Positions 6,293 to 60,572 of a stretch of 64,000 nt of DNA are shown here, piece by piece. The first letter of the stretch is position 1; each line of letters begins with the position of its first letter. This DNA is from a virus: positions 1 to 64,000 of IMG/VR virus record IMGVR_UViG_3300033552_000003; one strand, 5' to 3'. A program made the translations under genes and the position numbers. Under the pieces are notes generated by a model. The model was not told the DNA's origin, ran no database searches, and worked only from the letters and a program-made list of their open reading frames with translations.

Positions 6293-6468
6293 TGGATAAG
6301 CTAATAAAAACAACTTATACGTACGAATCAGTTGAAGAAGCAATAGTTGATTCTGAGAACATAAGCTATCTTTACAGAGAGAATAACACAAAAGTAGATT
6401 ACTATCAAATTCTTATAGGAAAAGAGTTAGTTCAATTAGTTTACTTTCTAAAAATATTAGAAATATGA
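6292..6468 (+). CDS. unlisted small ORF, 58 aa, GTG start (VDKLIKTTYTYESVEEAIVDSENISYLYRENNTKVDYYQILIGKELVQLVYFLKILEI)
   Basis: Fills an otherwise empty 172-nt gap. TAGTG overlap with the upstream stop and ATGA overlap with the downstream start at 6465. Just below the track cut-off. Confidence 0.45.
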   Translation: MDKLIKTTYTYESVEEAIVDSENISYLYRENNTKVDYYQILIGKELVQLVYFLKILEI

Positions 6469-6821
6469 GAGTATTTAGTAATGATGTAACTCAAGATGAG
6501 TACGTTAAGTTTTATGTAGACTTATGGGTAGGATCTTTTAAGCTTACAGACAAGGAAAAGAATGTTGTAATTGAATTAGTTAATATCTATTTAGAGTTAG
6601 CTGCAGATGGATTACAACCTAAGTATATTAATAAACTTCTATTCTCTACAGACTCACGTAAGAGAGTAAGAGATTCTATGAATATAAGTGAACCTGGTTT
6701 AAATAACTACTTTACACAACTTAAAGAAAAGTATGTAATCTTAGAAGAAGATAAAGAATTAAGTATCACGACATTCTTAATACCTGTATCAGAAATAACC
6801 TTTAAATTTAATATTATATGA
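6465..6821 (+). CDS. hypothetical protein, 118 aa (possible wHTH; weak)
   Basis: ORF in the track. Confidence 0.65.
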   Translation: MRVFSNDVTQDEYVKFYVDLWVGSFKLTDKEKNVVIELVNIYLELAADGLQPKYINKLLFSTDSRKRVRDSMNISEPGLNNYFTQLKEKYVILEEDKELSITTFLIPVSEITFKFNII

Positions 6822-40709: not shown

Positions 40710-40711
40710 TT

Positions 40712-43700
40712 ATGGCTTGTAAAATACCAAACTATATTGAAATATCTAACGCTTTAAGTAAAACTAAAGATTACTTAACTTCTGTACATCATGTTGTAGG
40801 AGAAGATATTAAAGCTTCAGGTGTGTTTGAAAAAGGCTTTACGTCTAATAGATATTATACTAGAAGTATTAGAACTGATAGTATAAATAAATCTAGAAAA
40901 TGGGTTGCTGATTACAACAATAAAATTAAAGAAATATTTGGTATAAAAGATAAAATACTAACGCTTAAAAAATCAGAATATAAAGGATCTACACAATACG
41001 AATCTATCAGTATAGATGCTACTGTACTTAAAACTTATCATGAAAAATTAGTTGATTTAAGAGATTCTACAAAATTAATAACTGCAGATGTAGAAAGAGG
41101 TTCTGAACCAGATTTCTATACAGGTAATTATCAAAAAGAATCTAATTATGGTTTTGAAAGTTTACAGGGATTATCTAATAAGATATTACGTCTTAAAAAG
41201 AATTTTAATACAAATGTTGTATTAGATTCTGATATGAAAGAATTAGGTAGAGTAGATCCTTATGAAGCTGGAGAAACTCCTACTGTTAGAATTAATCCTA
41301 TATTAGTTAATAAAGATACAGTGATACATGAATTTGGTCACGTATATATTAACTTGTTAGGTGGTAATTCTGATAGTATGATTGCTGAAGGAATAGCTCA
41401 ACTTAAAGGATCTGAATTATGGAATAAAGTTGCTTTAGCGTATTCTTCACTTACTGAAAAAGAATTAGGTGAGGAAGTATTAGCAACTGCAATAGGATTA
41501 GAGGGTGCAGAGATATTTGATGATTACATTAAAAGATCTAAATTTAGTTTATGGTTAGATAACTTTTTTAATAAATTAAAATCTTTAATAGGTATACCAA
41601 GAAACGTAGCTAAAGAATTAGCTAAAGAGATGTTTGGTAATAAGTTACGTACGGGAACTCCTAAAGGAATTAATTATTATCAGAAACAAAAGCTTGGTAC
41701 ACAAGATGAAGTTTATAATAAATTATTTTCTGCTAATAGTGAATTTACATCTGGAGAAAATAGCGATGTACTTATTAAAGATGGTGTACCATATACCAAC
41801 ATAAGTAAATTAGTATCTACAGATTTTCCTAGAAATACACTACAGAAGAAATCTTATGAAAGATCTGTACTTGAGATATTTAAACTAGTAAATAACAACT
41901 TAGATTTAGGATCAGTAAAAACAGAATTTAAGAAAGAACAAGATAAATCTAAATTTGGCTACCTTACTTTTCTGAATGATACTGATATAGAATCAGTATA
42001 TACTTACTGTAAGAAGTTTAAAGATAAATTTACTGAAGAGGGTAAAAAAGTACTTATTGGAAATACTGTAGTAGATGATAGAGATAACGTTAATATAGCT
42101 GGTAACATACAAATCAGTACTGTATCTCAAAAAGGTAAAGTAGATATATATAATCTGTTTATTACTTTAGGATCTGAACTTACAACTGATAGTATTGTTG
42201 CTGAACAGAGTTTACAAGTTGAAGCTTTAAAGAATATGGGTATTCAAACTAGTTCTATTTATACTTTACCTATTCGTTTAGTAGAGGACAGACTTATACC
42301 TAATCCTTATGTTGAAAATACTGTTAATAAAGAATACATAAAGAAGTATCTTTCTATACAGTTATCTCCTGAAGCAATAACTAAAGTAGCTAATACAGCT
42401 AAAGAACTTGTAGGTGTATTACAGAGAAAAGTAAGTATAATTTCTAGAACTATAGAAAGTAAAACTCCTATTCAAAAAGAACGTTTTGATGAGTTTAAAC
42501 AAACTGTAGCGGATTTAGCAGATGCTGAACAAACTAAAGTTATAACTTCATTTTTAGATACTGCTACTAGAGAAGTACTTGCACTTGAAAAACGTTTACA
42601 AAGTACAATTCAAAAAGATGATTTTACTTTAGAAGATTTACGAACTATATATGAATATAGTCAAGCATATTCTTCTGTTAAAGAAGTATCTGAATTACTT
42701 AGAGATCCTTCTATTGCTGAAGAATTTAAAGATACTAATTATATTAATCAAATAGATATTGTTAAAAGACATATTGATAATATAACAAGTACTTATAAAA
42801 AATATGCTAAAATAGCTTTAGCTAGAAGTAATAAAAAAGAAAGTAAAATATTTACAGCTAGGCGTATTGAACTTGAAAGAGAATTTAATAAAATAGAAAT
42901 TAAAAAATACAGTTCTCTTAAAGGAGATCAATTAAAACAAAAGAAATTAGAGTACATAAACAAACATATAGCTGATGAGTATAATATTTTAATACAAGAA
43001 GAAGAGGATCGTATAGTTAAGTTATTAACGGATACAGATTCTGATATTGGTGCAGTAGATTTATGGGTTACAGATAGCAGAAACTTAAATGATGAATTAT
43101 TACAATTACTTGAAAATAAATTATCAGTTGCTGACTTTACGGTTACTTCTGCTACTCAAGATGTTTATTCAGATGTAGATACAATCTTTAAAGAAGTTAT
43201 TACACTTAAAAGTAATACAACTGATCAGAAAAAGTTATATGAAGAATCTTTAGAAACTTATGAAAGTAAAACTACAGGATATTACGTATCTCAATACTTT
43301 TCTGAATTTGATAAACAGAAAAAGGTAGTATGGGATAAATACTATTCTTTTGAAAATAAAGATTCTTCTGAAGCACTAAAAGCTTATACTGAGGCTGTTG
43401 CTTGGAACAAAGATAATATTCAAAGTAAATACACTGAATCTTTTCAAAATCAAATGGATCAGTTTTTATCTGCAGATGATACTAATTATAAAGTAAATAG
43501 AATATTAGCTAAATATTCTGATAAAAGTAATGTATCAGATAAAGATTTAGCAGAAATAAAAACTTTACTTGAAAACAAGAAATCTACTCCTGATAAATTA
43601 AAGAATAAATTTTATAGCCAAGTTGATTTTGTAGAATCAGAAAGTTTTATAGAAACCAAAAAAAGAAAGAGTAAGCAACTTGGAGACAAATATGACGAAT

Positions 43701-45748
43701 GGTTAAGTAAACAGTATTATACAAAAGCTAATACTAAACGTTTATTACCTATGTGGTCTGAGTTATCTCCTAAAGATAAGTCTGTACTTAATCCTGATAA
43801 AGGTTTACCTAAGAATAAATGGGTAAATCCACAATATAAAAAACTAGAAGAACTTAGAAAACAAGACTCTTCTGTTGCTAAATTATATGATAAACTAATA
43901 AGTTATAACTTAGAAGCTGATAATTTAGTACCTCTTGCTCAAAGATTAGGTTATAAATTACCTTCTATAGAAAAATCAACTATTGAAAGAGTTTCTGATA
44001 AAGGTCCTTGGTTTGCAATAAGAGAAGGTTTTTTAAATTCATTTAGAAAAACAAACTTAGATATTGATTTAGGTGAAGAACAAGGAGTAGATAAAAAACA
44101 AGGTATTAATAGTCTACGTAATGTTGTAGACTCAGTTATTAATGTATTTACTACAGAAGCAGGTAGAGAAAAGAAAGCTATTCCTATTCATTATAGAAAA
44201 GACTTAACAAACTTAGAAGATCAATCTTATGATCTAGCTACTTTATGTTTAGCTAATTATCAAACTTGTAAAAATTACAGTGAAAAAACTAAAGTAGCAC
44301 TTGATTTAGAAGTTGCTAAAGATTTAGTTTATGAAAGACAGGTAAATCAATATACTCCAGATGGTAAATTAAAACTTGATAATTTTACAGGTAAAGCTGT
44401 AAAAAAAGAAGGTACATCTAATACATATAAAGCAATAGAATCTTTACTTGATACTAGACTTTATGGTATTAGAATGTTAGGAGATGCAAGTTTTAATAAG
44501 AAAGTGGGTCAATTAAATAACTGGGCTAGTGGTACAGTTATGATTCTTAATTATTTATCTGCTCCAGCCAATTTACTACATGGTAAAGTAACATCACTCA
44601 TTGAATCTGTAAGTAGTACATATTATAATACTACTAACTTAAAAAATGGAGAAGCTGAATATGCTAAGGATACTAAAAACATATTAGGTGATATAGGAAA
44701 TAGAAGACCTAATTCTAAAACAAATATACTTTTAGAAAGATTTAATGTACTTGATTCTTTTGATGTATTACATAATAGATTTTCTGAGAATAGTAAAGCT
44801 AGTAATTTATTAAAAGTAAATTCTCTTTATAGTTTTCAAACAGGTGGTGAACATATGATCCAAGGATCTGTAATGTATGCATATTTAGATACTATTAAAG
44901 TAACTAACAGTGAAAGTGTTACAGTTAAGTTTACAGATGCTATTGATATAGTAGATGGAAAAATAAAAGCTAAGGAGGGATATGAGGATGCAGTTAAACC
45001 TGAGCAATTATATAATATATCTGCAAGTATTGCTAGGATATTATCACATCAATTTGGTAACTATTCAAGTACTAATATATCTCAGTTACAACGTTTTGCA
45101 GTAGGTAACATGGTTGTGTCTTTAAAGAAGTTTTTTGTAGGTGGTGCTAAAAGAAGATACAGAGGTATATCAAACATTAAGAATAGAATAGGAGAAGATA
45201 ATTATAATACTCAGCATTATGATCCAGTTCTTGGTCACTATGTAGAAGGGGATTATATAACTACAATACGTACTTTACGTACTATGTATCAGGATTTTAA
45301 AACTTTAAAAATGCAAGCTATAGGTCAAACCTGGGAAGGTATGACAGATATTGAAAAAGGAAGATTTAAAAGAACTATGATCGAATTGAATATAGCACTT
45401 CTTGCGTTTACTTTGTCTATGCTTTTAAAAGGAGATAAAGATGATGATGAAGAAGAAACTACTACTCAATTAATGGGAGCATTCTTAACTCGTAGATTAT
45501 ATAGTGAATTATCTTTCTGGGTAAATCCTATAGAAATAGGACGTACTTTAAGATCACCTGCCCAATCCCTATCTTTTTCAGAAAAAATATTTAGACTATT
45601 AGGACAATTAACTAATCCTATGGAAGAATATACAAAAGGTAAAAGAAAAGGAGATAAAAAGATATTTAAAAAAATAGCAGATATTACACCTATATACTCA
45701 CAAATAAATCGTAATTTAGCAGAGTCAGTAGACTTCCTCTACAAATAA
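40712..45748 (+). CDS. large internal/ejected protein (1,678 aa from the ATG) with an N-terminal zincin HExxH module and a C-terminal TM segment
   Basis: The track start is TTG 40703; the ATG at 40712 lies 2 nt after the upstream stop. VIHEFGHVYINLLGG has HEFGH at 41327-41341. Near the C-terminus, IALLAFTLSMLL is followed by DKDDDEEE. Confidence 0.8.
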   Translation: MACKIPNYIEISNALSKTKDYLTSVHHVVGEDIKASGVFEKGFTSNRYYTRSIRTDSINKSRKWVADYNNKIKEIFGIKDKILTLKKSEYKGSTQYESISIDATVLKTYHEKLVDLRDSTKLITADVERGSEPDFYTGNYQKESNYGFESLQGLSNKILRLKKNFNTNVVLDSDMKELGRVDPYEAGETPTVRINPILVNKDTVIHEFGHVYINLLGGNSDSMIAEGIAQLKGSELWNKVALAYSSLTEKELGEEVLATAIGLEGAEIFDDYIKRSKFSLWLDNFFNKLKSLIGIPRNVAKELAKEMFGNKLRTGTPKGINYYQKQKLGTQDEVYNKLFSANSEFTSGENSDVLIKDGVPYTNISKLVSTDFPRNTLQKKSYERSVLEIFKLVNNNLDLGSVKTEFKKEQDKSKFGYLTFLNDTDIESVYTYCKKFKDKFTEEGKKVLIGNTVVDDRDNVNIAGNIQISTVSQKGKVDIYNLFITLGSELTTDSIVAEQSLQVEALKNMGIQTSSIYTLPIRLVEDRLIPNPYVENTVNKEYIKKYLSIQLSPEAITKVANTAKELVGVLQRKVSIISRTIESKTPIQKERFDEFKQTVADLADAEQTKVITSFLDTATREVLALEKRLQSTIQKDDFTLEDLRTIYEYSQAYSSVKEVSELLRDPSIAEEFKDTNYINQIDIVKRHIDNITSTYKKYAKIALARSNKKESKIFTARRIELEREFNKIEIKKYSSLKGDQLKQKKLEYINKHIADEYNILIQEEEDRIVKLLTDTDSDIGAVDLWVTDSRNLNDELLQLLENKLSVADFTVTSATQDVYSDVDTIFKEVITLKSNTTDQKKLYEESLETYESKTTGYYVSQYFSEFDKQKKVVWDKYYSFENKDSSEALKAYTEAVAWNKDNIQSKYTESFQNQMDQFLSADDTNYKVNRILAKYSDKSNVSDKDLAEIKTLLENKKSTPDKLKNKFYSQVDFVESESFIETKKRKSKQLGDKYDEWLSKQYYTKANTKRLLPMWSELSPKDKSVLNPDKGLPKNKWVNPQYKKLEELRKQDSSVAKLYDKLISYNLEADNLVPLAQRLGYKLPSIEKSTIERVSDKGPWFAIREGFLNSFRKTNLDIDLGEEQGVDKKQGINSLRNVVDSVINVFTTEAGREKKAIPIHYRKDLTNLEDQSYDLATLCLANYQTCKNYSEKTKVALDLEVAKDLVYERQVNQYTPDGKLKLDNFTGKAVKKEGTSNTYKAIESLLDTRLYGIRMLGDASFNKKVGQLNNWASGTVMILNYLSAPANLLHGKVTSLIESVSSTYYNTTNLKNGEAEYAKDTKNILGDIGNRRPNSKTNILLERFNVLDSFDVLHNRFSENSKASNLLKVNSLYSFQTGGEHMIQGSVMYAYLDTIKVTNSESVTVKFTDAIDIVDGKIKAKEGYEDAVKPEQLYNISASIARILSHQFGNYSSTNISQLQRFAVGNMVVSLKKFFVGGAKRRYRGISNIKNRIGEDNYNTQHYDPVLGHYVEGDYITTIRTLRTMYQDFKTLKMQAIGQTWEGMTDIEKGRFKRTMIELNIALLAFTLSMLLKGDKDDDEEETTTQLMGAFLTRRLYSELSFWVNPIEIGRTLRSPAQSLSFSEKIFRLLGQLTNPMEEYTKGKRKGDKKIFKKIADITPIYSQINRNLAESVDFLYK

Positions 45749-45760
45749 AATTTTAAAAAG

Positions 45761-46780
45761 ATGACAGAAGATACTAATTTAGGAGATGGTTTAAAAGTAA
45801 CAGGAAATTATCATGTAGATAGTCTTTATGGACCATATTTATCTATTGCAGATGCAAATGCTAAAGTAACTCTTTATCTAAGATCTGTTTCTGGTGTTAC
45901 AGGATTATTAGTTGGACGTACAGTTGCAATTGATGATGGTACAGTTAGAAAAGAATACTGGTGGGATGGTGGAACTGCAGATACAAATCTTGTTGAAAAA
46001 GTAGCAGGAAGCGGTGGTGGTGGAAGTACTTATACAGGTGTTTCTCCATCAAATGTAACTGTTGGAGGAATACCTTCAGGTACAAATCTTACAGGTAAAA
46101 CATTTACTGAAGTAATTCAACTATTAACAGTTACATATATAAACCCTAGCTTTACTGGATTTAATTTTACAGGTCAAGCACAAACTGTAGAAATAGGTAC
46201 AATATTAACTGGTTCTAGAACAATGACATGGTCTATCAATTCAGGATCAGGTACAATACCTACAATAGATATATTAGATAATACAGCAGGAACTACTTTG
46301 TTAGCTGGAACACCTAATGATGGAACACAAACATTAACAATAAATACAATTCAATTAAATACTGGTGGAGCAACACAAAGCTGGAGACTTAGAGGAAATA
46401 ATACATCTCCTGTAGGAACATTCAATTCTGGTGACTTTAATGTAGTAGGTAGATTCATATTATTTTTTGGTGCAACAACAAGTACTCCAACAACATCTGC
46501 TCAAATTAGAGCATTACCTCAAACACAGTTTTACACTGGTGGAGGAGTAATACAACTAAATACAGGTACGGGTATTAAATTTGGTGTTGCGGTTCCTCCA
46601 GGTTCTACTGTAGTTTCTGCAATAGATTTAGATGCTTCAAATGCAAATGTTACTTACACATTCGTAGGAAACATAAGTGTAACCGATGCAGGTGGTACAG
46701 CTAGGCTATACCCTTATTACGAAGCAAACATTGCAGTTGCATATTCTTCAAATCATAGATTTAACATATCAATATCTTAA
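45761..46780 (+). CDS. tail fibre / fibre adaptor, 339 aa
   Basis: G/T/S-rich beta-type composition. The N-terminal GPY..ADANA module plus GSGGGGS linker is shared with the next gene. Confidence 0.65.
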   Translation: MTEDTNLGDGLKVTGNYHVDSLYGPYLSIADANAKVTLYLRSVSGVTGLLVGRTVAIDDGTVRKEYWWDGGTADTNLVEKVAGSGGGGSTYTGVSPSNVTVGGIPSGTNLTGKTFTEVIQLLTVTYINPSFTGFNFTGQAQTVEIGTILTGSRTMTWSINSGSGTIPTIDILDNTAGTTLLAGTPNDGTQTLTINTIQLNTGGATQSWRLRGNNTSPVGTFNSGDFNVVGRFILFFGATTSTPTTSAQIRALPQTQFYTGGGVIQLNTGTGIKFGVAVPPGSTVVSAIDLDASNANVTYTFVGNISVTDAGGTARLYPYYEANIAVAYSSNHRFNISIS

Positions 46781-46783
46781 TAT

Positions 46784-49075
46784 ATGGCACAAACTCCCCC
46801 ATCATTACAACTACAGGCAGGCGTAAAGACCTTAAACCCGTATGAAGTAGAAACAGACAAAGGCCCTTATGCAACCGTTGCGGAAGCGAACGCTGCAATA
46901 AGTTCTGCTGTTCGGTTTATTGGTAAAGAAGCAAAAATAATTACAGCAGGAGTGCCAGTTTTACACATGTATAGCGGAGGAATATTAGACTCTAATCTAG
47001 TTCCTGCTTCTGGTGGCGGCTCGGCAGGTGGTGGCTCTGCTACTTCGTTAATTGAAAACATTACAGCAGGAGAAAATTTAGCATCTGGCAATTTAGTATA
47101 TTTAAAAAACGATGGCAAGTGGTGGAAGTCTGAAAGTCTGAATGTAGCAACTTGCGCAACAGAATTAAGAGTGGCACTAGCAGCAATAACCGTAAATGCC
47201 GTAGGCTCTAGTTTAATTACAGGTCAATTTACAACAACAGGATTAACAGCAGGTGCTATATATTACGTAGGTGCAGCAGGCTCTATTGTTTCAGTTGTGC
47301 CAGACACAGAAGGTATTGTAGTTCGAGTTGTTGGTACAGCATTAAGTACTACGGTATTTGAGTTTAATCCAGATTCAACATACATAGAAACTACACAAAT
47401 TTCTCCGATTAGTAATACTGAAAACGCTTTAACATTAGCGACTATAGTTACAGCAAATACCACATTAGCAAGTTCTAATTTATTAATTCCAGTCGACACA
47501 ACAGCAAACAGTGTAAATATAACACTGCCAAGTTCCCCGTTATCTAAAGATAGAATGGGGGCAAAACACATAACCCAAGGAAGTACAAATACGGTTACTA
47601 TTACATGCGCATCTGGACAGACATTTAATAAAGCAAGTGGGCCTACAACATTAGTATTGTATGTTCTTAATCAAGCTTGTTTATTAAGATTTGATTCTAA
47701 TATATGGTATGTAGAATCTGACAGTAATGCTTTAAGCCAGTTAGATTTAAGGTTCGGGAGTAAAACGGCAGTAGATTTAAATACAAATCAAATAGCGACA
47801 CTAACAGCTTCTTCTCAACGTAGATTCGGAGCATTTTCAAATAAAAATATAATGGGGGTTGGAAGTTGTTCTCCGTACGTTTCTGGAATACTGTCTAACG
47901 GAACAACAGATGTAGCGGAGACTAGTAAAATTTCTTACTACATGATAGGTAAATCCACTGAATTGACTGTTTACTTTACAAATTATGATAGTTTCCAATC
48001 TTCGACAATATCGGCATCTGACGATATGACATTAACAGCGTCGCTAGAATATCCAGCTGGAACTTTAACAAAAATAACTTTTAAAAATGGAGACAATAGC
48101 GTTTTGTTAAGACGTGGTTTTGGCATTGCTTCGGATTTTGTAAAAATATTTATTCCTGAAAATACTCAATATTGGATTCGCACATGTGTGACAGTAGTTT
48201 CAGGTCAAAAATGGTGTAGATCAATGGTTTCGGCTACTGGGTTTTATGCTTATGGGCAAGCATTTGAAGGAGTTCTAGCAGGAGATAATACAATGTCAGG
48301 AACTATTCCACAAACCAACTCGTACTGTTATGGGCCTACTGCAATATTTGGGGTTGGAAGCACAACTAAAGGTTCTGTAGCTCTATACGGCGATTCAATA
48401 AGTGCAGGATCAGGAGATAATAATCCTGTTCCATTAAGATATGAATTTGGCGGTGGTATTTATGGCAGAGCGTTTGGGTTTGCATATAATACATTATCGC
48501 TAAATAATCCGGGATGTTCTTTAGCTTCAATTCAAAAAAATTTAAGTGTAAATTATAAATATTATGATGAGTTGCTAAGTTCTGTACAGCTTTTTATTTC
48601 TAATTTAGGAGTTAACGACTTTCCTGTTACTTCCGAATCTGTAATGCAATCGCATTATATTAACATATGGTATAATAATTATGCACACGGGATTAAAGGA
48701 TACCAAACGACAATTACACCATATACGACAAGCACAGATTCCTGGGCAACAATAGCAAATCAAACGGCATCAGTAAATGACTCAAGAAGGATTTTTATAA
48801 ATACATGGATGCGAGACGGGGCACCAATAAACTATAGTACTAAAGTAGCAGCAGCGACAGGAGCGACAGGGACAAATATAGTAAGAACGGGAAATATTTT
48901 ACACCCATTAAGAGGCATATTTGACGTGGCTGCAACGGTTGAGTCTTCATTAAACTCTGGTAAATGGATTGTAAATGGTACGGCTAATTATGCTACTGTC
49001 GATGGGCTGCATGGTACTCCTAATTCATACCCATTAATGATTGTACCTATAGATTTAACATTATTTAACGTTTAA
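46784..49075 (+). CDS. tail fibre with a C-terminal SGNH/GDSL esterase domain
   Basis: Shared N-terminal module. SGNH blocks: ALYGDSISAGSG (GDS at 48389-48397), NLGVNDF, VDGLHGT (49001-49012). Confidence 0.7.
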   Translation: MAQTPPSLQLQAGVKTLNPYEVETDKGPYATVAEANAAISSAVRFIGKEAKIITAGVPVLHMYSGGILDSNLVPASGGGSAGGGSATSLIENITAGENLASGNLVYLKNDGKWWKSESLNVATCATELRVALAAITVNAVGSSLITGQFTTTGLTAGAIYYVGAAGSIVSVVPDTEGIVVRVVGTALSTTVFEFNPDSTYIETTQISPISNTENALTLATIVTANTTLASSNLLIPVDTTANSVNITLPSSPLSKDRMGAKHITQGSTNTVTITCASGQTFNKASGPTTLVLYVLNQACLLRFDSNIWYVESDSNALSQLDLRFGSKTAVDLNTNQIATLTASSQRRFGAFSNKNIMGVGSCSPYVSGILSNGTTDVAETSKISYYMIGKSTELTVYFTNYDSFQSSTISASDDMTLTASLEYPAGTLTKITFKNGDNSVLLRRGFGIASDFVKIFIPENTQYWIRTCVTVVSGQKWCRSMVSATGFYAYGQAFEGVLAGDNTMSGTIPQTNSYCYGPTAIFGVGSTTKGSVALYGDSISAGSGDNNPVPLRYEFGGGIYGRAFGFAYNTLSLNNPGCSLASIQKNLSVNYKYYDELLSSVQLFISNLGVNDFPVTSESVMQSHYINIWYNNYAHGIKGYQTTITPYTTSTDSWATIANQTASVNDSRRIFINTWMRDGAPINYSTKVAAATGATGTNIVRTGNILHPLRGIFDVAATVESSLNSGKWIVNGTANYATVDGLHGTPNSYPLMIVPIDLTLFNV

Positions 49076-49082
49076 AAATATT

Positions 49083-51950
49083 ATGGCTAAAATTGCAAAA
49101 AAAATAAACGGTATAATTTCAATAGTTGGGCCTTCTGGCTTAACGTCCTTCAATGGCCGGACAGCAGCAGCAGTAGTATTTACTCTTGCTGACTTACCTG
49201 CACTTACTGGATACGTTTCGCTTCCTGGTGTTGTTTCCGCTACAGATACACCTTTTACAGCCATTCAAAAATTGGACGGGAATATTAAGGCATCAACAGG
49301 CAAACAAATAGGAGTTATAATTTCAGACGACTTTACTAGAACAACTTTAGGAGGGAATTACACACAAGTAGGTGCGATCGGGGTTGCAATAACAGCAAAT
49401 AAGTTAGCACTGTCTGGAGCCGGATCTTATGCTACGCATGTACTCAGAAACGATTGGTATGTAAATTTAAAAACATGGGATATTGAAGCTGACTTTGTAA
49501 TAGATTCGGCAGGCGGAGGTTTAGCTATTATTTTAAAGGGGGCCATCGCTTCATCATATTTTAAAATAGACAATACAGGTAAATTATTTATTGATTACGA
49601 TTATCCAACGCTAACAAATGCAGCAAATTCAGGAACTAGTTTAGTTAGCTTTGCGACAGGTGAAACTATACATGTTAAAGTATCTAGAAATTATAATTCA
49701 GTAACATTAACAGCATACAATACTACAACTCCTTCAAATCAAGTAGCGGTAACAGCAAATGCAGACCTGTCAACTACAGGATTTACATTTGGAACCGTTG
49801 CACGTATTGCATTTGCTCAGCTTGGCGGAAGTAACACAGTTGATAACTTTGCTTATTCTAGCAAGATTCAGGAGGGTGCAGAAATAGCAGTGGTGCACGA
49901 TAGTTTAGGAGATGGTTACAATGCAGGAGCTTCGGGGCTTGAATGGATTAATCACTTAGCATCTACTTTAAATATACGTGTAGAAAAACTTGGTACATCT
50001 GGAAATAAAACATCAGATTCAATAAACTCTTTACCCGAATTAGGTTTATTGAAGCCAAAATATACCCTATTAAGTATAGGAGTAAACGATACAACAGGCG
50101 GCGTATCTCTAGCGACATTTCAAGCTAATGTAACTACAATAATAAACTATTGCCGATCAATAGGATCAATACCTTTATTTACTACAGTTCCCGTAACGAC
50201 TGGCTCCCCTACTGTAATAGATACATATAACGCATGGTTGACTGGCACAGTGCAGGGTTTGTGGGGCATTCAGGTAATTGACATTACTACTTACCTGAAA
50301 GATGGCGGAACTTCATTAGCTGCAAAATTCAGTTCGGACGGCACGCATTGGCCTTATAATGGGCACGCAGGAGTTGGGGCTTTAGTTGCAAATGCTTTAA
50401 CGTTTAGATTCCCTCGACAAAGAATTTCTTTTCAAGAAGACGGTTATAATGTTAACGTAGGCACAACAAACAATACAACTCCTGTTAAACACACATCTAG
50501 CGTATACAAAGGGGTGTTCTTGGGTGATGGCAACTATTTGTATAACGAATTAATTGCAGGTCAAGAAGGCTTATCTTTGGCAACAAATAGAGTAATGCTA
50601 TTGTCTGGTGCATCAGCACCTAATTCGGCATCTTTGCCCTCATGGAAAGCAAACATTTCAAATGTTGGAGATGCGTTTACTTTATTTAAAGCACCTGCAA
50701 CTGGTACAAATTTAGCAGATGTTATACAATTTAGTGTAAGAGGTAATTCAGCAGGATTTTCAAATTTTGGGTTCAATAGAGCTGGTAATGTTGGAAATTA
50801 TACAGTAGATATCTATAATCCTAATTCCGCAGAAACATCTGTTAGGATAAACTCACAAAGTACACCTCAGTATGCTTTTATGGAATACGCTATAAATGGC
50901 ACTCAAGTTCATTATGTACACCCGTCCGGAAGTTTAATAATAAATCCACTAAATAACACAACAGCAGGAAGGGGAAGCATACATTTAGGAAGCCTTCAGC
51001 AATATACTAATGCAACAAATATTATATTTCAAGCTGCCGGAACGGCTCCAACAATAGCGCAAATTAATACAACAGGTTTTGCGCAGTTTGCATCTGTAAG
51101 ACCTTCGACAACAAAAGTGGGGTGGTCTATATTGGCTGGAGATGGAACTCCGCACTACATAGGTGATAGGGTTGGGTTTGGAACACTAAATCCAAACTCG
51201 TATTTAACAACAATGGGGGGGAATCATTTAGCTCCTGCAATGAATTTTGATTTACTACAGCCAACTTCAGCAAGCGGCAGCGGTACAATAATTTCTTTAG
51301 GTTTTCCAGCACAGCCGCAGTCAAATTATGTAGTTGGTCAAATAGTAACACTTACGGGGTTTACACCAGCTACGTACAATGGAGATTATCCTGTTGCAAC
51401 TGTAGGACAAGCATTTTTGACACTTACAGGAACACCAACAGCAGCGGTTACAGTGTTAGGCAAAATAGGTTCACTTATAAGTGCTCCTCTTGCTGGGTCG
51501 GTTGAATATAATGGTCTTAGATTATTTCAAACACCTGCCTCATTAATACGCCAAACAGTAGCATGGTTATCTGACTTTACTAACGCTACTATTAATCACT
51601 TGATTGGTGGTGGGAATGCCCCAACTATTGCAGCAGGTGCAGGAGCAGGAACAGGCCCAACTATTACAATTACTAAAGCAACGGATTTAAGTGGAGTAAT
51701 TACGGTAACTACGGGAACATTACCTACTTTGGGTGCAACAATAGCAACGGTTACATTTGCAATTCCATTTACAGCAGCACCTAAAGTTATATTGTACAAT
51801 TCAGGGGTTAATTCAGCAGCTTTGAGTGGGGCCTCAATGGTTTATGTTGGCGACGCAAACACAACAGCACTAAAATTTGACTTAACATCTGGAGGTACGC
51901 CATTAAACGCAGCAACACCATATACATTTACTTACTTTATAACTCAATAA
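49083..51950 (+). CDS. tail fibre with a central SGNH/GDSL esterase domain
   Basis: Blocks VVHDSLGDG (49896-49904), LGTSGNKT, IGVNDT, SDGTHW (50337-50348), followed by a long A/G/T-rich C-terminal region. Confidence 0.7.
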   Translation: MAKIAKKINGIISIVGPSGLTSFNGRTAAAVVFTLADLPALTGYVSLPGVVSATDTPFTAIQKLDGNIKASTGKQIGVIISDDFTRTTLGGNYTQVGAIGVAITANKLALSGAGSYATHVLRNDWYVNLKTWDIEADFVIDSAGGGLAIILKGAIASSYFKIDNTGKLFIDYDYPTLTNAANSGTSLVSFATGETIHVKVSRNYNSVTLTAYNTTTPSNQVAVTANADLSTTGFTFGTVARIAFAQLGGSNTVDNFAYSSKIQEGAEIAVVHDSLGDGYNAGASGLEWINHLASTLNIRVEKLGTSGNKTSDSINSLPELGLLKPKYTLLSIGVNDTTGGVSLATFQANVTTIINYCRSIGSIPLFTTVPVTTGSPTVIDTYNAWLTGTVQGLWGIQVIDITTYLKDGGTSLAAKFSSDGTHWPYNGHAGVGALVANALTFRFPRQRISFQEDGYNVNVGTTNNTTPVKHTSSVYKGVFLGDGNYLYNELIAGQEGLSLATNRVMLLSGASAPNSASLPSWKANISNVGDAFTLFKAPATGTNLADVIQFSVRGNSAGFSNFGFNRAGNVGNYTVDIYNPNSAETSVRINSQSTPQYAFMEYAINGTQVHYVHPSGSLIINPLNNTTAGRGSIHLGSLQQYTNATNIIFQAAGTAPTIAQINTTGFAQFASVRPSTTKVGWSILAGDGTPHYIGDRVGFGTLNPNSYLTTMGGNHLAPAMNFDLLQPTSASGSGTIISLGFPAQPQSNYVVGQIVTLTGFTPATYNGDYPVATVGQAFLTLTGTPTAAVTVLGKIGSLISAPLAGSVEYNGLRLFQTPASLIRQTVAWLSDFTNATINHLIGGGNAPTIAAGAGAGTGPTITITKATDLSGVITVTTGTLPTLGATIATVTFAIPFTAAPKVILYNSGVNSAALSGASMVYVGDANTTALKFDLTSGGTPLNAATPYTFTYFITQ

Positions 51951-51975
51951 TTATTATATTTGTAAAAAAAATATC

Positions 51976-52236
51976 ATGGAAAATACAATCGAAGTACAGG
52001 AAGTAAGCACAGAAGCAATTATACAACTTTCGGAGCAGTCTTTTTCAGACCTAAACGAATTGATTGTACAGAATAACTATTTCCAATTAAAGGCGCAAAA
52101 GTCATTAAGAGATTTGAATGATAACTTATTTACTTCTATTAATGCTTCTGAGCACAGCGTATCAGACTATATGGTTAAAGACATAAACTTTAATACAAGA
52201 CAATTAGTATTAATCAAAAAACCAGAAGCAGTATAA
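51976..52236 (+). CDS. hypothetical protein, 86 aa
   Basis: ORF in the track; inside the GC-richer island. Confidence 0.6.
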   Translation: MENTIEVQEVSTEAIIQLSEQSFSDLNELIVQNNYFQLKAQKSLRDLNDNLFTSINASEHSVSDYMVKDINFNTRQLVLIKKPEAV

Positions 52237-52520
52237 TGAATAGGTTCTGCAAGTATTTATTGACTCAAATTTATGAGGGGGACGTAACATCTCTGAAAGC
52301 GGAGCCTATTATTGGAACCTGCATAAGTATACTTACTATTGGAGGTATTGATAGATTAGTTGGCCTTGCTCATATTGTTGGCGCAATAACATTGACAATA
52401 ATAACAGTAAGTATAGGCGTATTGCTACCTATGATACTTCGTTTTGTTATGCACCGATTCAAGACTAAATATCCAATACTTGCTGAGCTTTTAAAGCACG
52501 ATAAAAAGAAAGATGAGTGA
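52236..52520 (+). CDS. holin-like membrane protein, 94 aa (two TM segments)
   Basis: IIGTCISILTIGG and GAITLTIITVSIGVLLPMIL hydrophobic segments, basic C-terminus. Lies upstream of the endolysin. Confidence 0.5.
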   Translation: MNRFCKYLLTQIYEGDVTSLKAEPIIGTCISILTIGGIDRLVGLAHIVGAITLTIITVSIGVLLPMILRFVMHRFKTKYPILAELLKHDKKKDE

Positions 52521-52704
52521 GGAAAGCCCTAATTCAAGTACGTCTATTTACATAATGCTGTTTATTTTAGTCATAATTACGGCTATGGCTTTGTATGATG
52601 AAGGGCAAAAGATAAACAGATTAAAGAGTGCAATTTATATTATTTCAAATCGGCTGGATAGCTTAATAACTGAGGAACATGAAAAAAAATGGAAGATAAA
52701 CTAA
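52513..52704 (+). CDS. small single-TM protein, 63 aa (holin/antiholin-like)
   Basis: IYIMLFILVIITAMAL segment; overlaps both neighbours. Confidence 0.5.
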   Translation: MSEESPNSSTSIYIMLFILVIITAMALYDEGQKINRLKSAIYIISNRLDSLITEEHEKKWKIN

Positions 52705-53174
52705 CATTAGAAAGAGCAAAAGAAATAAGTCCTGAATTATATTCAGAGCTTAGTCTAATTATAAAAGAATCTAACAAAGCTTTAACAGGTAGAGCTATTC
52801 TTAGATTAGCTTATGTATTTAGATCTTTTATAGAACAAACATTTATATATGCTCAAGGGCGTACAAGACCAGGTTTAATAGTAACTAATGCTAAAGCAGG
52901 ACAATCTATACATAACTATAGATACGCTGTTGATATAGTATTACTTAAAGATACTAATGGTGATGGTACATTTGAAACTGCATCATGGGAAACTAACGTA
53001 GATTTTGATGGAGATGGTAAAGCTGATTGGATGGAAATTGTAGCTATATTTCAAAAATATGGATGGCAGTGGGGTTTAATTAACAAAAAAGGTCAGCGAT
53101 ATGATTTACCTCATTTTCAAAAATCTCCTATGTCTTTAAAAGAATTACAATTTAAATATCCTAAAGGACGTTAA
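52689..53174 (+). CDS. endolysin, peptidase M15 (VanY / L-alanyl-D-glutamate peptidase type)
   Basis: IYAQGRTRPGLIVTNAKAGQSIHNYRYAVD ... GWQWG ... YDLPHFQ reproduces the M15 S-x-H-x(5,6)-D and D-x-x-H zinc-ligand pattern. Confidence 0.85.
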   Translation: MEDKLTLERAKEISPELYSELSLIIKESNKALTGRAILRLAYVFRSFIEQTFIYAQGRTRPGLIVTNAKAGQSIHNYRYAVDIVLLKDTNGDGTFETASWETNVDFDGDGKADWMEIVAIFQKYGWQWGLINKKGQRYDLPHFQKSPMSLKELQFKYPKGR

Positions 53175-53176
53175 TT

Positions 53177-53578
53177 ATGTTATATATATATTTATTATTT
53201 GTTATTTATTCTTCTTTAGCAGGGTCTGTAGAAGCTATTCTTTATGGTAGACAAGGAGCAGAAACATTTAAATGGAATGAGCATGTTTTATATGTATTAA
53301 AAGCAGGATTTGTTTTAGGAGGATATTTACTTGCTCCTTATCTTGTACATATGAGTATTTTAGAAAGTTTAGTATGTTTTGGAATTTCTTCAATGGCATA
53401 TCCATTCTTTCATGATGGATTTTACTATGAAACAGCTAGACGTATAAACAGACCTGATTATAGATTTAGTAGTAATTCACAAACATCTACTGCAGATATA
53501 GAAGTACTTTGGTCTATAAGATTAAATGCTTTTCTGGTATCTATTATAACATTGTTAATTTATACATTTATATGGTAA
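53177..53578 (+). CDS. multi-pass membrane protein, 133 aa
   Basis: About four hydrophobic segments. Confidence 0.65.
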   Translation: MLYIYLLFVIYSSLAGSVEAILYGRQGAETFKWNEHVLYVLKAGFVLGGYLLAPYLVHMSILESLVCFGISSMAYPFFHDGFYYETARRINRPDYRFSSNSQTSTADIEVLWSIRLNAFLVSIITLLIYTFIW

Positions 53579-53916
53579 AAGAAAAAAAATGGTTTCTGGG
53601 ATGGACCAATATTAAATGGATTATTAAAGAATTTATTAAAATAGGTTCATCTGATCAATCATACTTTTCTAAAAAAAGGATAGAGAGTGGTATAGCATTC
53701 TTTGTATATCAATGGGGTTCTATATATTATCTTATGAATAAGATAGATAGTATGGTATCTGGAGATTTCTTATTATGGGCAGGTATAGAATTAGCTATAT
53801 GTGGTTATATTATTGGTCAAATAGAAAGATCTAAAAATACAATATCTGAAGTTAAACAAGAAATTACTATAAAAGAAACAACATCTAAAGAACCTAGAAA
53901 TGAAACTGAATTATAA
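53572..53916 (+). CDS. membrane protein, 114 aa
   Basis: The track ORF starts at TTG 53509; the ATG at 53572 overlaps the upstream stop by 7 nt. Two hydrophobic segments. Confidence 0.6.
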   Translation: MVKEKKWFLGWTNIKWIIKEFIKIGSSDQSYFSKKRIESGIAFFVYQWGSIYYLMNKIDSMVSGDFLLWAGIELAICGYIIGQIERSKNTISEVKQEITIKETTSKEPRNETEL

Positions 53917-54214
53917 AATTGTCCTTATTGTATTTGGAATATTAGTGTTATTTATAACAGCATTAATTATACAAAATTATATTATTAATAAGAGATTTGC
54001 AAAGTTTGAACAACAAATCAAACAAGAAAGAATAAATAGTATTCTTTATACAGACTCTTTAATAACTGTAAGTAATAACAGATTACAAGAAAAGTTTGAT
54101 AGTTCTATTGCTAAATTACAAAAAAGAAATAGTGTGGTTAGTACTAAAATTAAAAAAGATAATGAAAAACTTAATTCTATTAATACTTCTAATATCTTCT
54201 TACCAAAGTTTTAG
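53900..54214 (+). CDS. N-terminally anchored coiled-coil protein, 104 aa (i-spanin-like by architecture)
   Basis: IVLIVFGILVLFITALII anchor followed by a charged helical region. Confidence 0.55.
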   Translation: MKLNYKIVLIVFGILVLFITALIIQNYIINKRFAKFEQQIKQERINSILYTDSLITVSNNRLQEKFDSSIAKLQKRNSVVSTKIKKDNEKLNSINTSNIFLPKF

Positions 54215-54533
54215 TCAAATAAAACTTAATTCTGATAATACAGTTACTATACCTGTAGATATATATAGAATAATCAGAGATAAATTCTATGTATGTGATA
54301 CAGCTATAGCTAACAGAGATGAAAAAATAAGTATTCAAGATTCTGTTATTGTACAACAGAATCAAAAAATAGAATCTTTTAAATTAACTATAATTAAAAA
54401 AGATAGTACTATTGTCTTACTTAAAGAAGAATTATTTAAACCTGATTCTAAAGATAAAAAACCTGTTATAAATATACCTACTCTAACAGCAGGATTAATA
54501 GGATTAATATTAGGTATATTATTAGTTAGATAA
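54162..54533 (+). CDS. protein with an N-terminal signal-like segment and a C-terminal TM anchor, 123 aa
   Basis: ATG at 54162 inside track ORF 54096-54533. MKNLILLILLISSYQSFSQ has no lipobox Cys. C-terminal LTAGLIGLILGILLV. Confidence 0.5.
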   Translation: MKNLILLILLISSYQSFSQIKLNSDNTVTIPVDIYRIIRDKFYVCDTAIANRDEKISIQDSVIVQQNQKIESFKLTIIKKDSTIVLLKEELFKPDSKDKKPVINIPTLTAGLIGLILGILLVR

Positions 54534-54537
54534 TTTG

Positions 54538-54608
54538 CACAAAGACTAAGACTCGAACTTAGATTAACGGTTTTGGAGACCGTGGTTCTACCATTGAACT
54601 ATCTATGT
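54538..54608 (-). tRNA. trnW: tRNA-Trp (CCA)
   Basis: Hand-folded cloverleaf, 71 nt: ACAUAGA-UA-GUUC-AAUGGUA-GAAC-C-ACGGU-[CU CCA AA]-ACCGU-UAAU-CUAAG-UUCGAGU-CUUAG-UCUUUGU-G. One U:U mismatch in the acceptor stem; CCA is not encoded. Confidence 0.8.
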
Positions 54609-54614
54609 GTGTAG

Positions 54615-54688
54615 AGGAAAGTCTCAGATTCGAACTGAGGATCACTTGATTAACAGTCAAGAGCTTTAACCAACTAAGCTAACTTTCC
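54615..54688 (-). tRNA. trnN: tRNA-Asn (GUU)
   Basis: 74 nt: GGAAAGU-UA-GCUU-AGUUGGUUA-AAGC-U-CUUGA-[CU GUU AA]-UCAAG-UGAUC-CUCAG-UUCGAAU-CUGAG-ACUUUCC-U. All stems are perfect. Confidence 0.85.
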
Positions 54689-54774
54689 AAATGACAGAGT
54701 ATTTTTCCTAAAAGGAGCCATTTTAATTTATACACAGTTGCTTTCTCCCTCTGTCAGGGAACACTATCAGTTTG

Positions 54775-54848
54775 TGAGTCCAATAGGATTTGAACCTATG
54801 ACGCTTACCTTTTCAGGGTAACGCTCTACCAGACTGAGCTATAGACTC
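54775..54848 (-). tRNA. trnF: tRNA-Phe (GAA)
   Basis: 74 nt: GAGUCUA-UA-GCUC-AGUCUGGUA-GAGC-G-UUACC-[CU GAA AA]-GGUAA-GCGUC-AUAGG-UUCAAAU-CCUAU-UGGACUC-A. Confidence 0.85.
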
Positions 54849-54851
54849 AAA

Positions 54852-54922
54852 TTATTCTCCAAGGATTCGAACCTTAATTGACAGTTCCAAAAACTGTAGT
54901 CCTGCCGTTAGACGAGAGAATA
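54852..54922 (-). tRNA. trnQ: tRNA-Gln (UUG)
   Basis: 71 nt: UAUUCUC-UC-GUCU-AACGGCA-GGAC-U-ACAGU-[UU UUG GA]-ACUGU-CAAU-UAAGG-UUCGAAU-CCUUG-GAGAAUA-A. Confidence 0.8.
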
Positions 54923-54923
54923 G

Positions 54924-55015
54924 CAACTAGGGAAGGCTTCGAACCTCCAAATACTTTTAGTTAAAAGTAAACATTCGAGACAGGAATGCGTGTTTGCCAA
55001 TTTCACCACCTAGTT
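54924..55015 (-). tRNA. atypical class-II (long variable arm) tRNA; the anticodon position reads GUC
   Basis: 92 nt: AACUAGG-UG-GUG-AAAUUGGCAAA-CAC-G-CAUUC-[CU GUC UC]-GAAUG-(23-nt variable region with stem ACUUUU/AAAAGU)-GGAGG-UUCGAAG-CCUUC-CCUAGUU-G. Leu/Tyr-like architecture, but the anticodon is formally Asp and position 37 is U. Confidence 0.55.
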
Positions 55016-60098: not shown

Positions 60099-60572
60099 CT
60101 ATTTTATTAATAGTGATTTAAGCCATGCGATATCCTCTTCCAATAGCTCCTTTTCTTTCTCCCACTCTTCCTTCGCTTGCTCGACGCACGCATCCTTATA
60201 TTCGTTCATGCACTCAATAATCCATTTTCTATCTAATTCGTGGAAATGGAACTTGTGTTCATCCTCGTACTTTTTAAGTATTAAATCCGCTACGCTTGGT
60301 GAACCTAAATTGCCTAGCATGTTTTCTAAATTCTCAGTCATTTTGTCTTTACCTAATTTGCCTAATCTATTTTTTAACGGCTTATCTCTCATGTTTTCAA
60401 AAACTGTTTCATGAAGAACTTTTTGAAAGTCGGGTTCAATTTGGATTTGTTTGCTATCTTTTTTATACCCTTCCATTGCCTGTTTTAGCCAATAAACGTT
60501 ATGCGATTCTTTTAAAGAACGTATTCGGGCTTGTAACCACCCTATCCAGTTGTTGAGGTTTTCTGTGCTCAT
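60099..60572 (-). CDS. hypothetical protein, 157 aa
   Basis: ORF in the track. The plus-strand ORFs 60094-60414 and 60296-60556 are antisense shadows. Confidence 0.7.
   Translation of the reverse strand: MSTENLNNWIGWLQARIRSLKESHNVYWLKQAMEGYKKDSKQIQIEPDFQKVLHETVFENMRDKPLKNRLGKLGKDKMTENLENMLGNLGSPSVADLILKKYEDEHKFHFHELDRKWIIECMNEYKDACVEQAKEEWEKEKELLEEDIAWLKSLLIK

Follow-up and report, generated by a model that had tools for sequence, protein, structure and literature searches.

How does a block of tail-fibre and lysis genes come to differ so sharply in composition from the phage genome that carries it? The question is raised by a locus in a 64,000-nucleotide stretch of viral DNA (IMG/VR virus record IMGVR_UViG_3300033552_000003, positions 1 to 64,000; hereafter the window). 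Here two tail fibres with SGNH-esterase domains (763 and 955 aa), an 86-aa protein and two holin-like membrane proteins (94 and 63 aa) are encoded at 46784-52704, between the gene for a 339-aa tail protein and that for an M15 endolysin. A first-pass annotation, made from the sequence alone, took the block for a host-range cassette acquired recently from a GC-richer phage or host, and moved together with membrane genes. Our follow-up makes it probable that the filling of this slot was imported by recombination from a module pool maintained among GC-richer phages, and that it is still being swapped between strains.

The window is part of a crAss-like (Crassvirales) genome of ~92 kb whose codons are extremely AT-rich. 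It matches the Pfam families Crass_capsid (E = 1e-129) and crAss_MUZ, the crAss muzzle protein (E = 5e-50); its terminase, portal and major head protein are recognised by PHROGs, and the terminase is nearest to that of Cellulophaga phage phi14:2, at 34%, then to those of gut crAss-like and Flavobacterium phages. The phage family, taken by itself, suggests a host among the Bacteroidota. Megablast of 44.0-55.5 kb against GenBank phages gave no close relative, tblastn of GenBank with the 422-aa, 339-aa and fibre-2 proteins gave no relative or nothing useful, and a search of IMG/VR with the 1681-aa, 489-aa and 406-aa proteins returned no backbone relative.

G+C content (GC) in 1-kb windows is 0.37-0.40 at 46-52 kb and ~0.28 elsewhere. 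Total GC is ambiguous at this locus, since Gly, Ala, Thr and Ser abound in fibre proteins, and it was therefore split by codon position. At third positions (GC3) the five genes of 46784-52704 show, in order, 0.223, 0.227, 0.299, 0.305 and 0.344, against a mean of 0.121 (sd 0.058) for the other 38 open reading frames (ORFs) of the window. The 339-aa gene, on the left, owes its total GC of 0.347 solely to second positions (GC2 0.51), its GC3 being 0.085, and the endolysin gene, on the right, has a GC3 of 0.099. The shift thus sits at synonymous sites and is not a matter of amino-acid bias. Windows of 100 codons tell the same story (mean GC3 0.099 over 264 backbone windows, 0.223 over 32 island windows; Mann-Whitney p = 3e-19), as does a two-boundary likelihood fit to 9,668 third codon positions, controlled with 20 shuffles, which delimits a compositionally foreign segment at 46657-52701 on the plus strand (GC3 0.235 inside, 0.092 outside). 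The log-likelihood ratio of this change-point fit is 132, that of the shuffles at most 11, and the edges fall within 46624-46672 on the left and 52677-52733 on the right.

The abrupt change of composition and codon choice described in the first-pass annotation is therefore real: the sliding-window profile is far from uniform, the codons CCG, GCG, GGC and CGG, which had been singled out as common here and almost absent elsewhere, are 8-14 times commoner in the island than in the backbone, and the right edge, which had been put near 52.7 kb where the endolysin gene returns to the low-GC style, is found at 52701. On the left the step is as abrupt as claimed, but it lies ~125 nt upstream of the fibre start at which it had been placed, within the final ~40 codons of the 339-aa gene.

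The foreign character extends beyond GC3. In synonymous codon usage the Jensen-Shannon divergence of the island from its own backbone is 0.058, and from the backbones of three unrelated, GC-richer phages (our contigs L003, L004 and L009) 0.015, 0.015 and 0.021, so that the island is about four times nearer to the latter; for the 339-aa and endolysin genes the pattern is reversed, both being nearer to their own backbone. The block would stand out because its codons have yet to drift to resident usage. A repeat search of 45-54 kb found no meaningful direct or inverted repeats flanking the block, and no integrase, transposase or tRNA attachment site was seen with the island ORFs. With neither flanking repeats nor an integrase or transposase among those ORFs, a transposon or integrative element was rejected, and the absence of flanking repeats points instead to homologous replacement between two conserved arms.

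The left arm is the gene of the 339-aa tail protein (45761-46780, plus strand), which is of native composition up to ~46657 (GC3 0.067 before this point and 0.214 after it). Residues 1-~94 of the protein form an anchor-like N-terminal domain of backbone type, and residues ~95-339 a C-terminal domain shared at 69-72% with GC-richer phages; the last ~80 residues are nearly invariant in the family. Homologues occur in L003, L004 and L012-L032, and a profile scan of JGI metagenomes found the family at 29 loci, mostly of GC 0.33-0.43. The probable left recombination site is a conserved junction at 46560-46900 (plus strand), which runs from the 3' end of the 339-aa gene over a 3-nt spacer into the start of the fibre-1 anchor sequence, with a mean column identity of ~92% in an alignment of six contigs. 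Against L003, identity over most of the 339-aa gene is 52-75%; it climbs to 92-100% at 46600-46720, holds at ~80% up to 46900 and drops below 55% beyond. The match to L003 is exact for 80 nt (46646-46725), and L003, L004 and L015 all match exactly over 42 nt (46762-46803) that cross the stop codon, the spacer and the fibre start. L023 differs from the window at one position in 241 nt (46465-46705); in the six-way alignment it carries the window variant to ~46755 and the L003/L004 variant from there on. The left edge given by the change-point fit, 46624-46672, falls within this junction.

These features suggest that proteins of the 339 family act as adaptors, the N-terminal domain being specific to the backbone and the conserved C-terminal domain receiving the fibre anchor; such a role would account both for the conservation of the junction and for the travel of this gene end with the cassette. 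The other end of the gene is also conserved: its first ~52 nt (45761-45812; 194-245 in contig L012) differ at one position between the window and L012, the genes being 72% identical overall, and the boundary between the 1681-aa and 339-aa genes is thus a second highly conserved gene-start junction.

The same module is found in other phages, with a conserved slot order: 339-aa adaptor-like protein, anchored fibre or fibres, 86-aa protein, small membrane proteins and M15 endolysin. The slot lies downstream of giant virion proteins. L003 and L004, both from IMG/VR, have different and smaller backbones; the 604-aa portal protein of L003 matches another PHROG, and the capsid-like proteins of the two (354 and 384 aa, respectively) have no Crass_capsid match. 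L003 carries the whole frame in the same order. Its 331-aa protein is 69% identical to residues 78-339 of the 339-aa protein; the first 76 residues of its single, 988-aa fibre are 67% identical to the N-terminus of fibre 1, and residues 75-911 are 45% identical to fibre 2; its 85-aa protein is 62% identical to the 86-aa protein of the window; one of its two membrane proteins, of 69 aa, is 34% identical to the 63-aa protein; and its endolysin is 57% identical to that of the window. L004 has the first two elements only and ends inside the fibre. Every gene of L003 and L004 has a GC3 of 0.22-0.36, and the module is compositionally native there; where this order recurs on different backbones, GC3 is uniform at 0.26-0.34. 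A relative of the fibre-1 esterase, P0001, sits on a third type of backbone (L009-L011) with a uniform GC3 near 0.3. L015 has the same frame—339-family protein, anchored fibre, 85-aa protein, membrane protein, endolysin—around unrelated fibre bodies, and the slot is therefore one with interchangeable fillings.

The module shared with other phages extends beyond the compositional island, for it takes in the 339-aa and endolysin genes, which are native in the window. That the fibres had moved together with the membrane genes, as first proposed, agrees with the foreign composition of the latter and with their place in the same frame on other backbones. As to the source, 'a GC-richer phage or host', the phage half of the proposal is favoured by codon usage and by the homologous modules; the host or prophage half is not, two scans of species-representative bacterial genomes, with 339-family and fibre-2 profiles, having found no relative. 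Refilling of the slot can be seen among GC-richer phages too: L003 and L015, contigs of one sample (IMG metagenome Ga0326734), are 95-100% identical in DNA over the membrane-protein genes ahead of the endolysin, and their fibre bodies are unrelated.

We propose that the filling at 46.66-52.70 kb would have come by homologous recombination from a circulating pool of fibre-and-lysis modules held by unrelated phages of higher GC (33-41%), the left crossover falling in the conserved sequence formed by the 339-aa gene's 3' end and the fibre anchor, and the right one at the holin/endolysin boundary. The transfer would have been into the window phage, because the block is anomalous only there. Transfer in the opposite direction, with a module ancestral to the crAss-like lineage exported to GC-richer phages, has in its favour that the 339 family lies beside giant crAss-type proteins in L018, L020 and L012, so that this gene at least may be ancestral; yet an exported AT-rich original would be anomalous in its recipients, and it is in the window that the block is anomalous and in L003, L004, L009 and L015 that it is native, which leaves export very improbable.

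Replacement at the slot is observed among co-existing strains. A segment at 49400-52886 (plus strand), with breakpoints at ~49.4, 50.5 and 52.86 kb, varies among genomes that are otherwise identical. L005, a 91-kb contig from ENA, has no mismatch to the window from 35761 to ~49400 (13.6 kb); beyond 49400 the divergence per 100 nt is 4-16% as far as 50.5 kb and 20-40% as far as 51.5 kb, and past 51.58 kb no alignment is possible. Its allele of fibre 2, P0014 (927 aa, GC3 0.27), is 92-100% identical to that of the window over residues 1-500, 54-76% over residues 501-850, and unrelated over the tip, residues 851-955. The first 1.5 kb of the allele (aa 1-500) contain 64 differences, of which 56 are synonymous, with no A-bias. 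These differences are those of old alleles that recombination has joined. The replacement tip of L005 has 91.5% DNA identity to the end of the L023 fibre, and therefore derives from the same GC-richer pool. L007, a 2.8-kb contig of the same ENA sample, carries the window allele over 50081-52855, with 32 mismatches, all in 50090-50471, and then none for 2.4 kb; L006, a Logan contig, is 100% identical to the window from 52886 on. Together the three contigs imply at least three haplotypes, in a bubble that closes inside the endolysin gene near 52.86-52.89 kb.

Diversification by a diversity-generating retroelement or by hypermutation was rejected as the source of this variation on three counts: the 56 synonymous changes among the 64, the lack of A-bias, and the lack of a repeat pair in 45-54 kb. 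No hallmark of such a retroelement was found, though a reverse transcriptase was not explicitly searched for beyond the genes scanned.

Metagenome assembly might itself have made the mosaic, if the short conserved junctions had led the assembler to fuse a crAss-like genome with a piece of some other phage. The window is indeed a metagenome contig, the conserved junctions of 42-80 nt are longer than typical k-mers, and independent assemblies break here (the end of L005, both ends of L007, the start of L006). Such breaks are, however, what co-existing alleles would produce, and the independent ENA contig of 91 kb matches the window base for base from the giant-protein gene, across the 339-aa gene and fibre 1, to a point inside fibre 2. 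L007 in turn extends from distal fibre 2 across all three small genes into the endolysin, of which it covers the first 55 codons, native in composition. Across the sole 30 nt left unbridged the endolysin frame and its homology to L003 are continuous. We regard a chimera as very improbable.

The lineage of the window phage holds other fillings as well. L012, a contig of 1.6 kb, is a true relative of the backbone and its one representative at moderate divergence: the ORF ahead of its 339-aa homologue ends like the 1681-aa protein of the window, and the first 60 nt of that homologue are 97% identical to the window's. The L012 homologue has a GC3 of 0.069 up to nt 587; past this point, and for 924 nt into the following fibre, the sequence has 97.7% identity to L014, which belongs to another backbone, and a GC3 of 0.19-0.26 (Fisher p = 1e-4). 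This fibre, with an anchor of P0016 type, is not the window's fibre 1. Another member of the lineage thus fills the slot with a foreign cassette of its own, the breakpoint lying elsewhere in the same arm—the opposite of one island kept with one composition in all relatives. L018, a 125-kb contig of a distant crAss-like relative, encodes in turn a giant protein, a 1681-aa protein, a 339-family protein and fibres; the latter, at GC3 0.09-0.17, do not exceed their own backbone (0.17-0.19).

These relatives bear on a further explanation, that the raised GC3 was made or kept locally, by GC-biased gene conversion at a hotspot or by codon selection on late genes, in fibres that are long-term residents. 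Three haplotypes mark the locus as a recombination hotspot; the fibre GC3, at 0.22, falls between the values of the backbone and of the GC-richer phages; L012 shows a GC3 likewise raised downstream of the same gene; and no near-identical donor has come to light. Against this, the other late structural genes, the major capsid gene included, have GC3 of 0.17 or less, the L018 fibres show no rise, and it is the entire synonymous codon table, not GC3 alone, that fits foreign backbones. The step is abrupt and coincides with the exact-match junctions, and the part of L012 with raised GC3, at 97.7% identity to a contig of another backbone, is a direct import. We therefore think a local origin improbable.

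Import from the module pool, which we prefer, has several observations against it. For the bulk of the block no near-identical source was found: outside the junction the nearest sampled DNA is at 76-78% (fibre-1 esterase, 86-aa gene), the body of fibre 2 reaches 45% in protein, and the 94-aa protein has no detected homologue in the related modules. The fibre GC3 of 0.22 is somewhat below the 0.27-0.30 of the putative donor pool, which could reflect partial amelioration or a different source. No close relative of the backbone without a foreign-looking cassette was found, L012 having one and L018 being very distant, and the 30 nt of the right junction (52856-52885) are bridged by the window assembly alone. 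AlphaFold models of the fibre-1 esterase module (3-sequence alignment, mean pLDDT 26) and of fibre 2 (4-sequence alignment, mean pLDDT 33) were unusable. A 'recent' acquisition, as first put forward, is consequently demonstrable at the junction and in the swaps between strains, and not for most of the block, whose nearest sampled relatives are at 45-78%.

Fibre 1 (763 aa; 46784-49075, plus strand) is a mosaic of three parts: an anchor (aa 1-~85), a middle region (aa ~81-357) found in pieces in many fibre proteins, and a two-domain SGNH esterase module (aa 326-763). The catalytic blocks are at 48389-48397 (I, GDS), 48608-48619 (III, GVND) and 49001-49012 (V, DGLH). Single-sequence searches were equivocal, the protein matching phrog_8480, 'lysophospholipase L1-like esterase', at E = 2e-40, scoring below threshold in Pfam (E = 0.016, 16 bits) and finding no match among PDB sequences; thin profiles, against PDB and, by hhalign, against fibre 2, were not significant either. 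A deep family profile then settled the matter. An exhaustive HMMER search with aa 326-763 gathered 2,763 cluster representatives, and in a 61-member alignment S213, N286, G416 and H418 are invariant, with G211, D212, G233, G284 and D415 conserved in at least 90%; these columns coincide with G-D-S, the block II Gly, G-x-N and D-G-x-H. The profile matches solved SGNH/GDSL hydrolases at E = 3.5e-20 (9kr0 and 7tog; also 7tok, 'acetylxylan esterase I') over both the N-terminal beta-rich part and the catalytic domain, and 45 of the 61 members individually pass Pfam Lipase_GDSL_2 (E <= 1e-3). The fibre-1 esterase is 77% identical to P0001 in protein and 76% in DNA over 47785-49085, homology of the P0001 kind stopping at 49085, at the ATG of fibre 2. 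Cultured phages of Arthrobacter, Gordonia, Mesorhizobium and Shewanella encode kin of the module at 24-34% identity, as 'minor tail proteins' or esterases.

The middle domain of fibre 1 (47400-47760, aa ~215-326), '...ITLPSSP...TVTITCASG...LLRFDSNIWYVES', resembles by eye the replacement tip '...TLP...NTGTANITL...ILQNDGLYWEVM' of the L005 and L023 fibres, and the likeness suggests a small beta domain reused at different positions along fibres.

Fibre 2 (955 aa; 49083-51950, plus strand) has no anchor. It consists of a conserved neck, 'LTSFNGRT...' (49135-49283), a beta-rich domain (aa ~75-265), an SGNH domain (aa 273-428, 49899-50366), a distal beta-rich region (aa ~440-850) and a tip (aa ~851-955, 51633-51947), all on the plus strand. 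The SGNH motifs are HDS at 49896-49904 (aa 272), GTSG at 49992-50003 (aa 304), GVND at 50079-50090 (aa 333) and DGTH at 50337-50348 (aa 419), block I thus reading HDS and not GDS. The protein matches Pfam Lipase_GDSL_2 at E = 6e-15 (56.6 bits, cutoff 32.9) and the G-D-S-L protein of PDB 4rsh at E = 2.5e-4, and D273, S274, G307, N308, G333, N335, D336, G420 and H422 are invariant across four homologues. Its last 155 residues give sub-threshold matches to gp53-like_C and H-lectin, and the tip would form a separate binding domain. Tblastn of GenBank detected no relative in cultured phages. The first-pass annotation had assigned both fibres to SGNH from their blocks; all seven motif positions given there are exact, and the assignment is upheld for fibre 1 by the family profile with its invariant catalytic residues, and for fibre 2 by an above-cutoff Pfam match with every block present.

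The two fibres belong to two different SGNH subfamilies. Similarity between their SGNH domains is not significant (hhalign), and tandem duplication was rejected as the origin of the pair on both grounds. A different history is suggested by the neck. In the L003, L023 and P0016 fibres the anchor of ~85 aa is joined directly to the 'LTSFNGRT...' neck; fibre 2 begins ~20 residues ahead of its neck, without an anchor, and the neck DNA is 87-89% identical to that of L004 and L023. The simplest reading of the mosaic would be the insertion of an esterase between anchor and neck: an ancestral single fibre, with anchor, 'LTSFNGRT' neck and esterase body, would have been split by a second esterase module that included a stop codon, leaving fibre 1 with the anchor and fibre 2 as a separate, anchor-less gene. 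By analogy with known phage esterases, both fibres are predicted to be virion-borne carbohydrate esterases that would bind and deacylate a surface polysaccharide of the host at adsorption, which would make two O-acetylated glycans candidate receptors.

Three small genes follow fibre 2 on the plus strand. As originally described, one encodes an 86-aa protein and the other two small membrane proteins. The 86-aa protein (51976-52236) is soluble and acidic, with no hydrophobic segment; in L003 and in L015 (53% identity) it accompanies different fibre bodies, and it goes with the lysis genes and not with a particular fibre. The 94-aa protein (52236-52520; GC3 0.305), whose start overlaps the preceding stop codon, has one hydrophobic stretch (aa ~38-68) and a strongly charged C-terminus, KHDKKKDE, and is a holin/antiholin candidate. 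The 63-aa protein (52513-52704; GC3 0.344), whose gene overlaps both neighbours, has a single transmembrane (TM) segment (aa 9-27) and is a holin candidate. None of the three matches a Pfam, PHROG, NCBIfam or PADLOC family. The description 'holin-like' is therefore sustained for the 94-aa and 63-aa proteins by context—size, hydrophobic segment, charged C-terminus, position before the endolysin—and not by a holin family match. The overlaps of these genes with each other and with the endolysin start suggest one translational unit, and we infer that the pair provides holin and antiholin for the adjacent endolysin.

Alternatively the membrane proteins might be superinfection-exclusion or other membrane factors, and the 86-aa protein a fibre chaperone. 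None of the three, as just said, belongs to a holin family, and genes for 133-aa and 104-aa membrane proteins past the endolysin could supply holin and spanin functions. The overlapping gene arrangement, found again ahead of the endolysin in L003 and L015, speaks for lysis, however; the retention of the 86-aa protein in L015 despite unrelated fibre bodies argues against a fibre-specific chaperone; and defence and superinfection-exclusion families were discarded for the small genes in the absence of any PADLOC match. We regard the alternative as unlikely.

The right arm of the slot is the M15 (VanY-like) endolysin gene (52689-53174, plus strand), of native composition, which matches Pfam Peptidase_M15_4 (E = 2.6e-9) and endolysin PHROGs. 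In DNA it is 72% identical to its L003 counterpart, with a peak of 83% in a single 60-nt bin. The switch in composition comes where this gene begins, and so parts the foreign holin-like genes from the native endolysin. Past the endolysin, at 53177-54533, lie several small membrane-protein genes of native composition, among them those of the 133-aa protein, with hydrophobic segments at both ends, the 104-aa protein, with an N-terminal TM segment, and a 145-aa protein whose N-terminus is signal-like and whose TM segment is C-terminal. These may be further, spanin-like lysis parts, in which case the lysis cassette straddles the composition boundary.

A bolder reading of the slot, which we put forward tentatively and rather doubt, is that the C-terminal domain of the 339 family and the anchor of ~85 aa form a portable 'socket and plug', by which cassettes for receptor binding plus lysis move across Crassvirales and unrelated small phages of one host community, with fibre 2 mounted on fibre 1 or on the 339-aa protein to give a branched fibre with two esterases. 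If this were true, the co-transfer of the holin-like genes would be no accident of gene order, and the cassette would be a matched entry-and-exit set for each host envelope.

Some features of the window lie outside the slot. Two giant ORFs, of 3984 and 1681 aa, stand back to back at 28755-45748, upstream of the island, and match no Pfam family; L018 encodes a protein of exactly 1681 aa in the same position, with no tblastn similarity to that of the window at E <= 1e-4. A minus-strand cluster of tRNA genes (Trp-CCA, Asn-GTT, Phe-GAA, Gln-TTG) lies amid plus-strand genes at 54537-55015, 1.4 kb downstream of the endolysin; ARAGORN adds a 93-nt tRNA-Asp at 54923-55015, unconfirmed by Rfam, and a strong terminator-like hairpin follows on the minus strand at 55057-55026. 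In a scan for promoters and terminators, promoter-like sites were not enriched over shuffles. A minus-strand ORF of 157 aa at 60099-60572, just past a strand switch near 59.6 kb, has the highest GC3 of the window, 0.40; its protein sequence is plausible, it has no Pfam family, and it may be another foreign gene. ORFs at 1896-2411 (minus strand) and 6465-6821 (plus strand), likewise without a Pfam family, have GC3 of 0.20 and 0.21, against a backbone mean of 0.12.

Islands of atypical composition are a familiar mark, in bacterial genomics, of horizontal transfer followed by amelioration. The block resembles them in its abrupt change of GC3 and codons, its sharp borders and its fit to a plausible donor pool; it differs in having no integrase, tRNA site or flanking repeats, in the apparent homologous replacement within a slot, and in its lytic-type phage recipient. 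Equally well established is the swapping of receptor-binding modules built on a conserved N-terminal anchor or adaptor, as in podoviruses of the T7/SP6/K1-5 type, in the depolymerase systems of Klebsiella phages and in gp63.1/gp66 of phage G7C. For the Studiervirinae, horizontal transfer of spike modules has been described (PMC7693777). The window locus shares with such systems the conserved N-terminal anchor with swappable distal enzymatic or binding parts, breakpoints at domain or gene boundaries, two tandem fibres and exchange across phage lineages. Unlike them, it has a crAss-like recipient with unrelated smaller phages as partners, is known here from sequence, adds the 86-aa and holin-like genes to the exchanged unit, abuts the endolysin, and has a second fibre that is anchor-less. 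The lysis part resembles a canonical holin-endolysin cassette in its small membrane proteins with charged C-termini, directly upstream of and overlapping a peptidoglycan hydrolase, and departs from it in the lack of a holin family match and in the composition boundary that cuts it.

SGNH/GDSL esterases of tailspikes and fibres, which deacetylate surface polysaccharide, have been reported as a structural deacetylase in Acinetobacter phage Aristophanes (PMC8471582), as an esterase domain in the epsilon15 tailspike (bioRxiv 10.64898/2026.07.31.742079) and as SGNH receptor-binding enzymes in Klebsiella prophages (PMC13123978). Like SGNH tailspikes, the window fibres have blocks I, II, III and V, in domains inside long fibre proteins of the tail module. 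The likeness drawn here is one of description; the fibre-1 module belongs to a two-domain family whose solved kin are of the 9kr0/7tog type, and fibre 2 has HDS for GDS in block I and no relative among cultured phages.

Fibre-module exchange, SGNH fibres and compositional islands are thus all well known, and the locus is a clear but ordinary case of them. What is specific to it is the pairing of a crAss-like recipient with unrelated small partners, the exchange of holin-like genes, a split fibre without an anchor, and three time depths at one place: an un-ameliorated block, an alternative cassette at the level of the lineage, and a replaced tip at the level of the strain. Crass-like phages are abundant but mostly uncultured, and their host-range determinants are for that reason hard to study. 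This locus offers a bounded example, a fixed slot with conserved junctions, a shared module pool and swaps between genomes identical over 13.6 kb, and it supplies for work on adsorption the coordinates of exchangeable parts, two candidate polysaccharide esterases and a natural pair of tip variants. It also carries a warning, that metagenome assemblies break at such slots, and that host predictions made from composition or from fibre homology can be misled by them.

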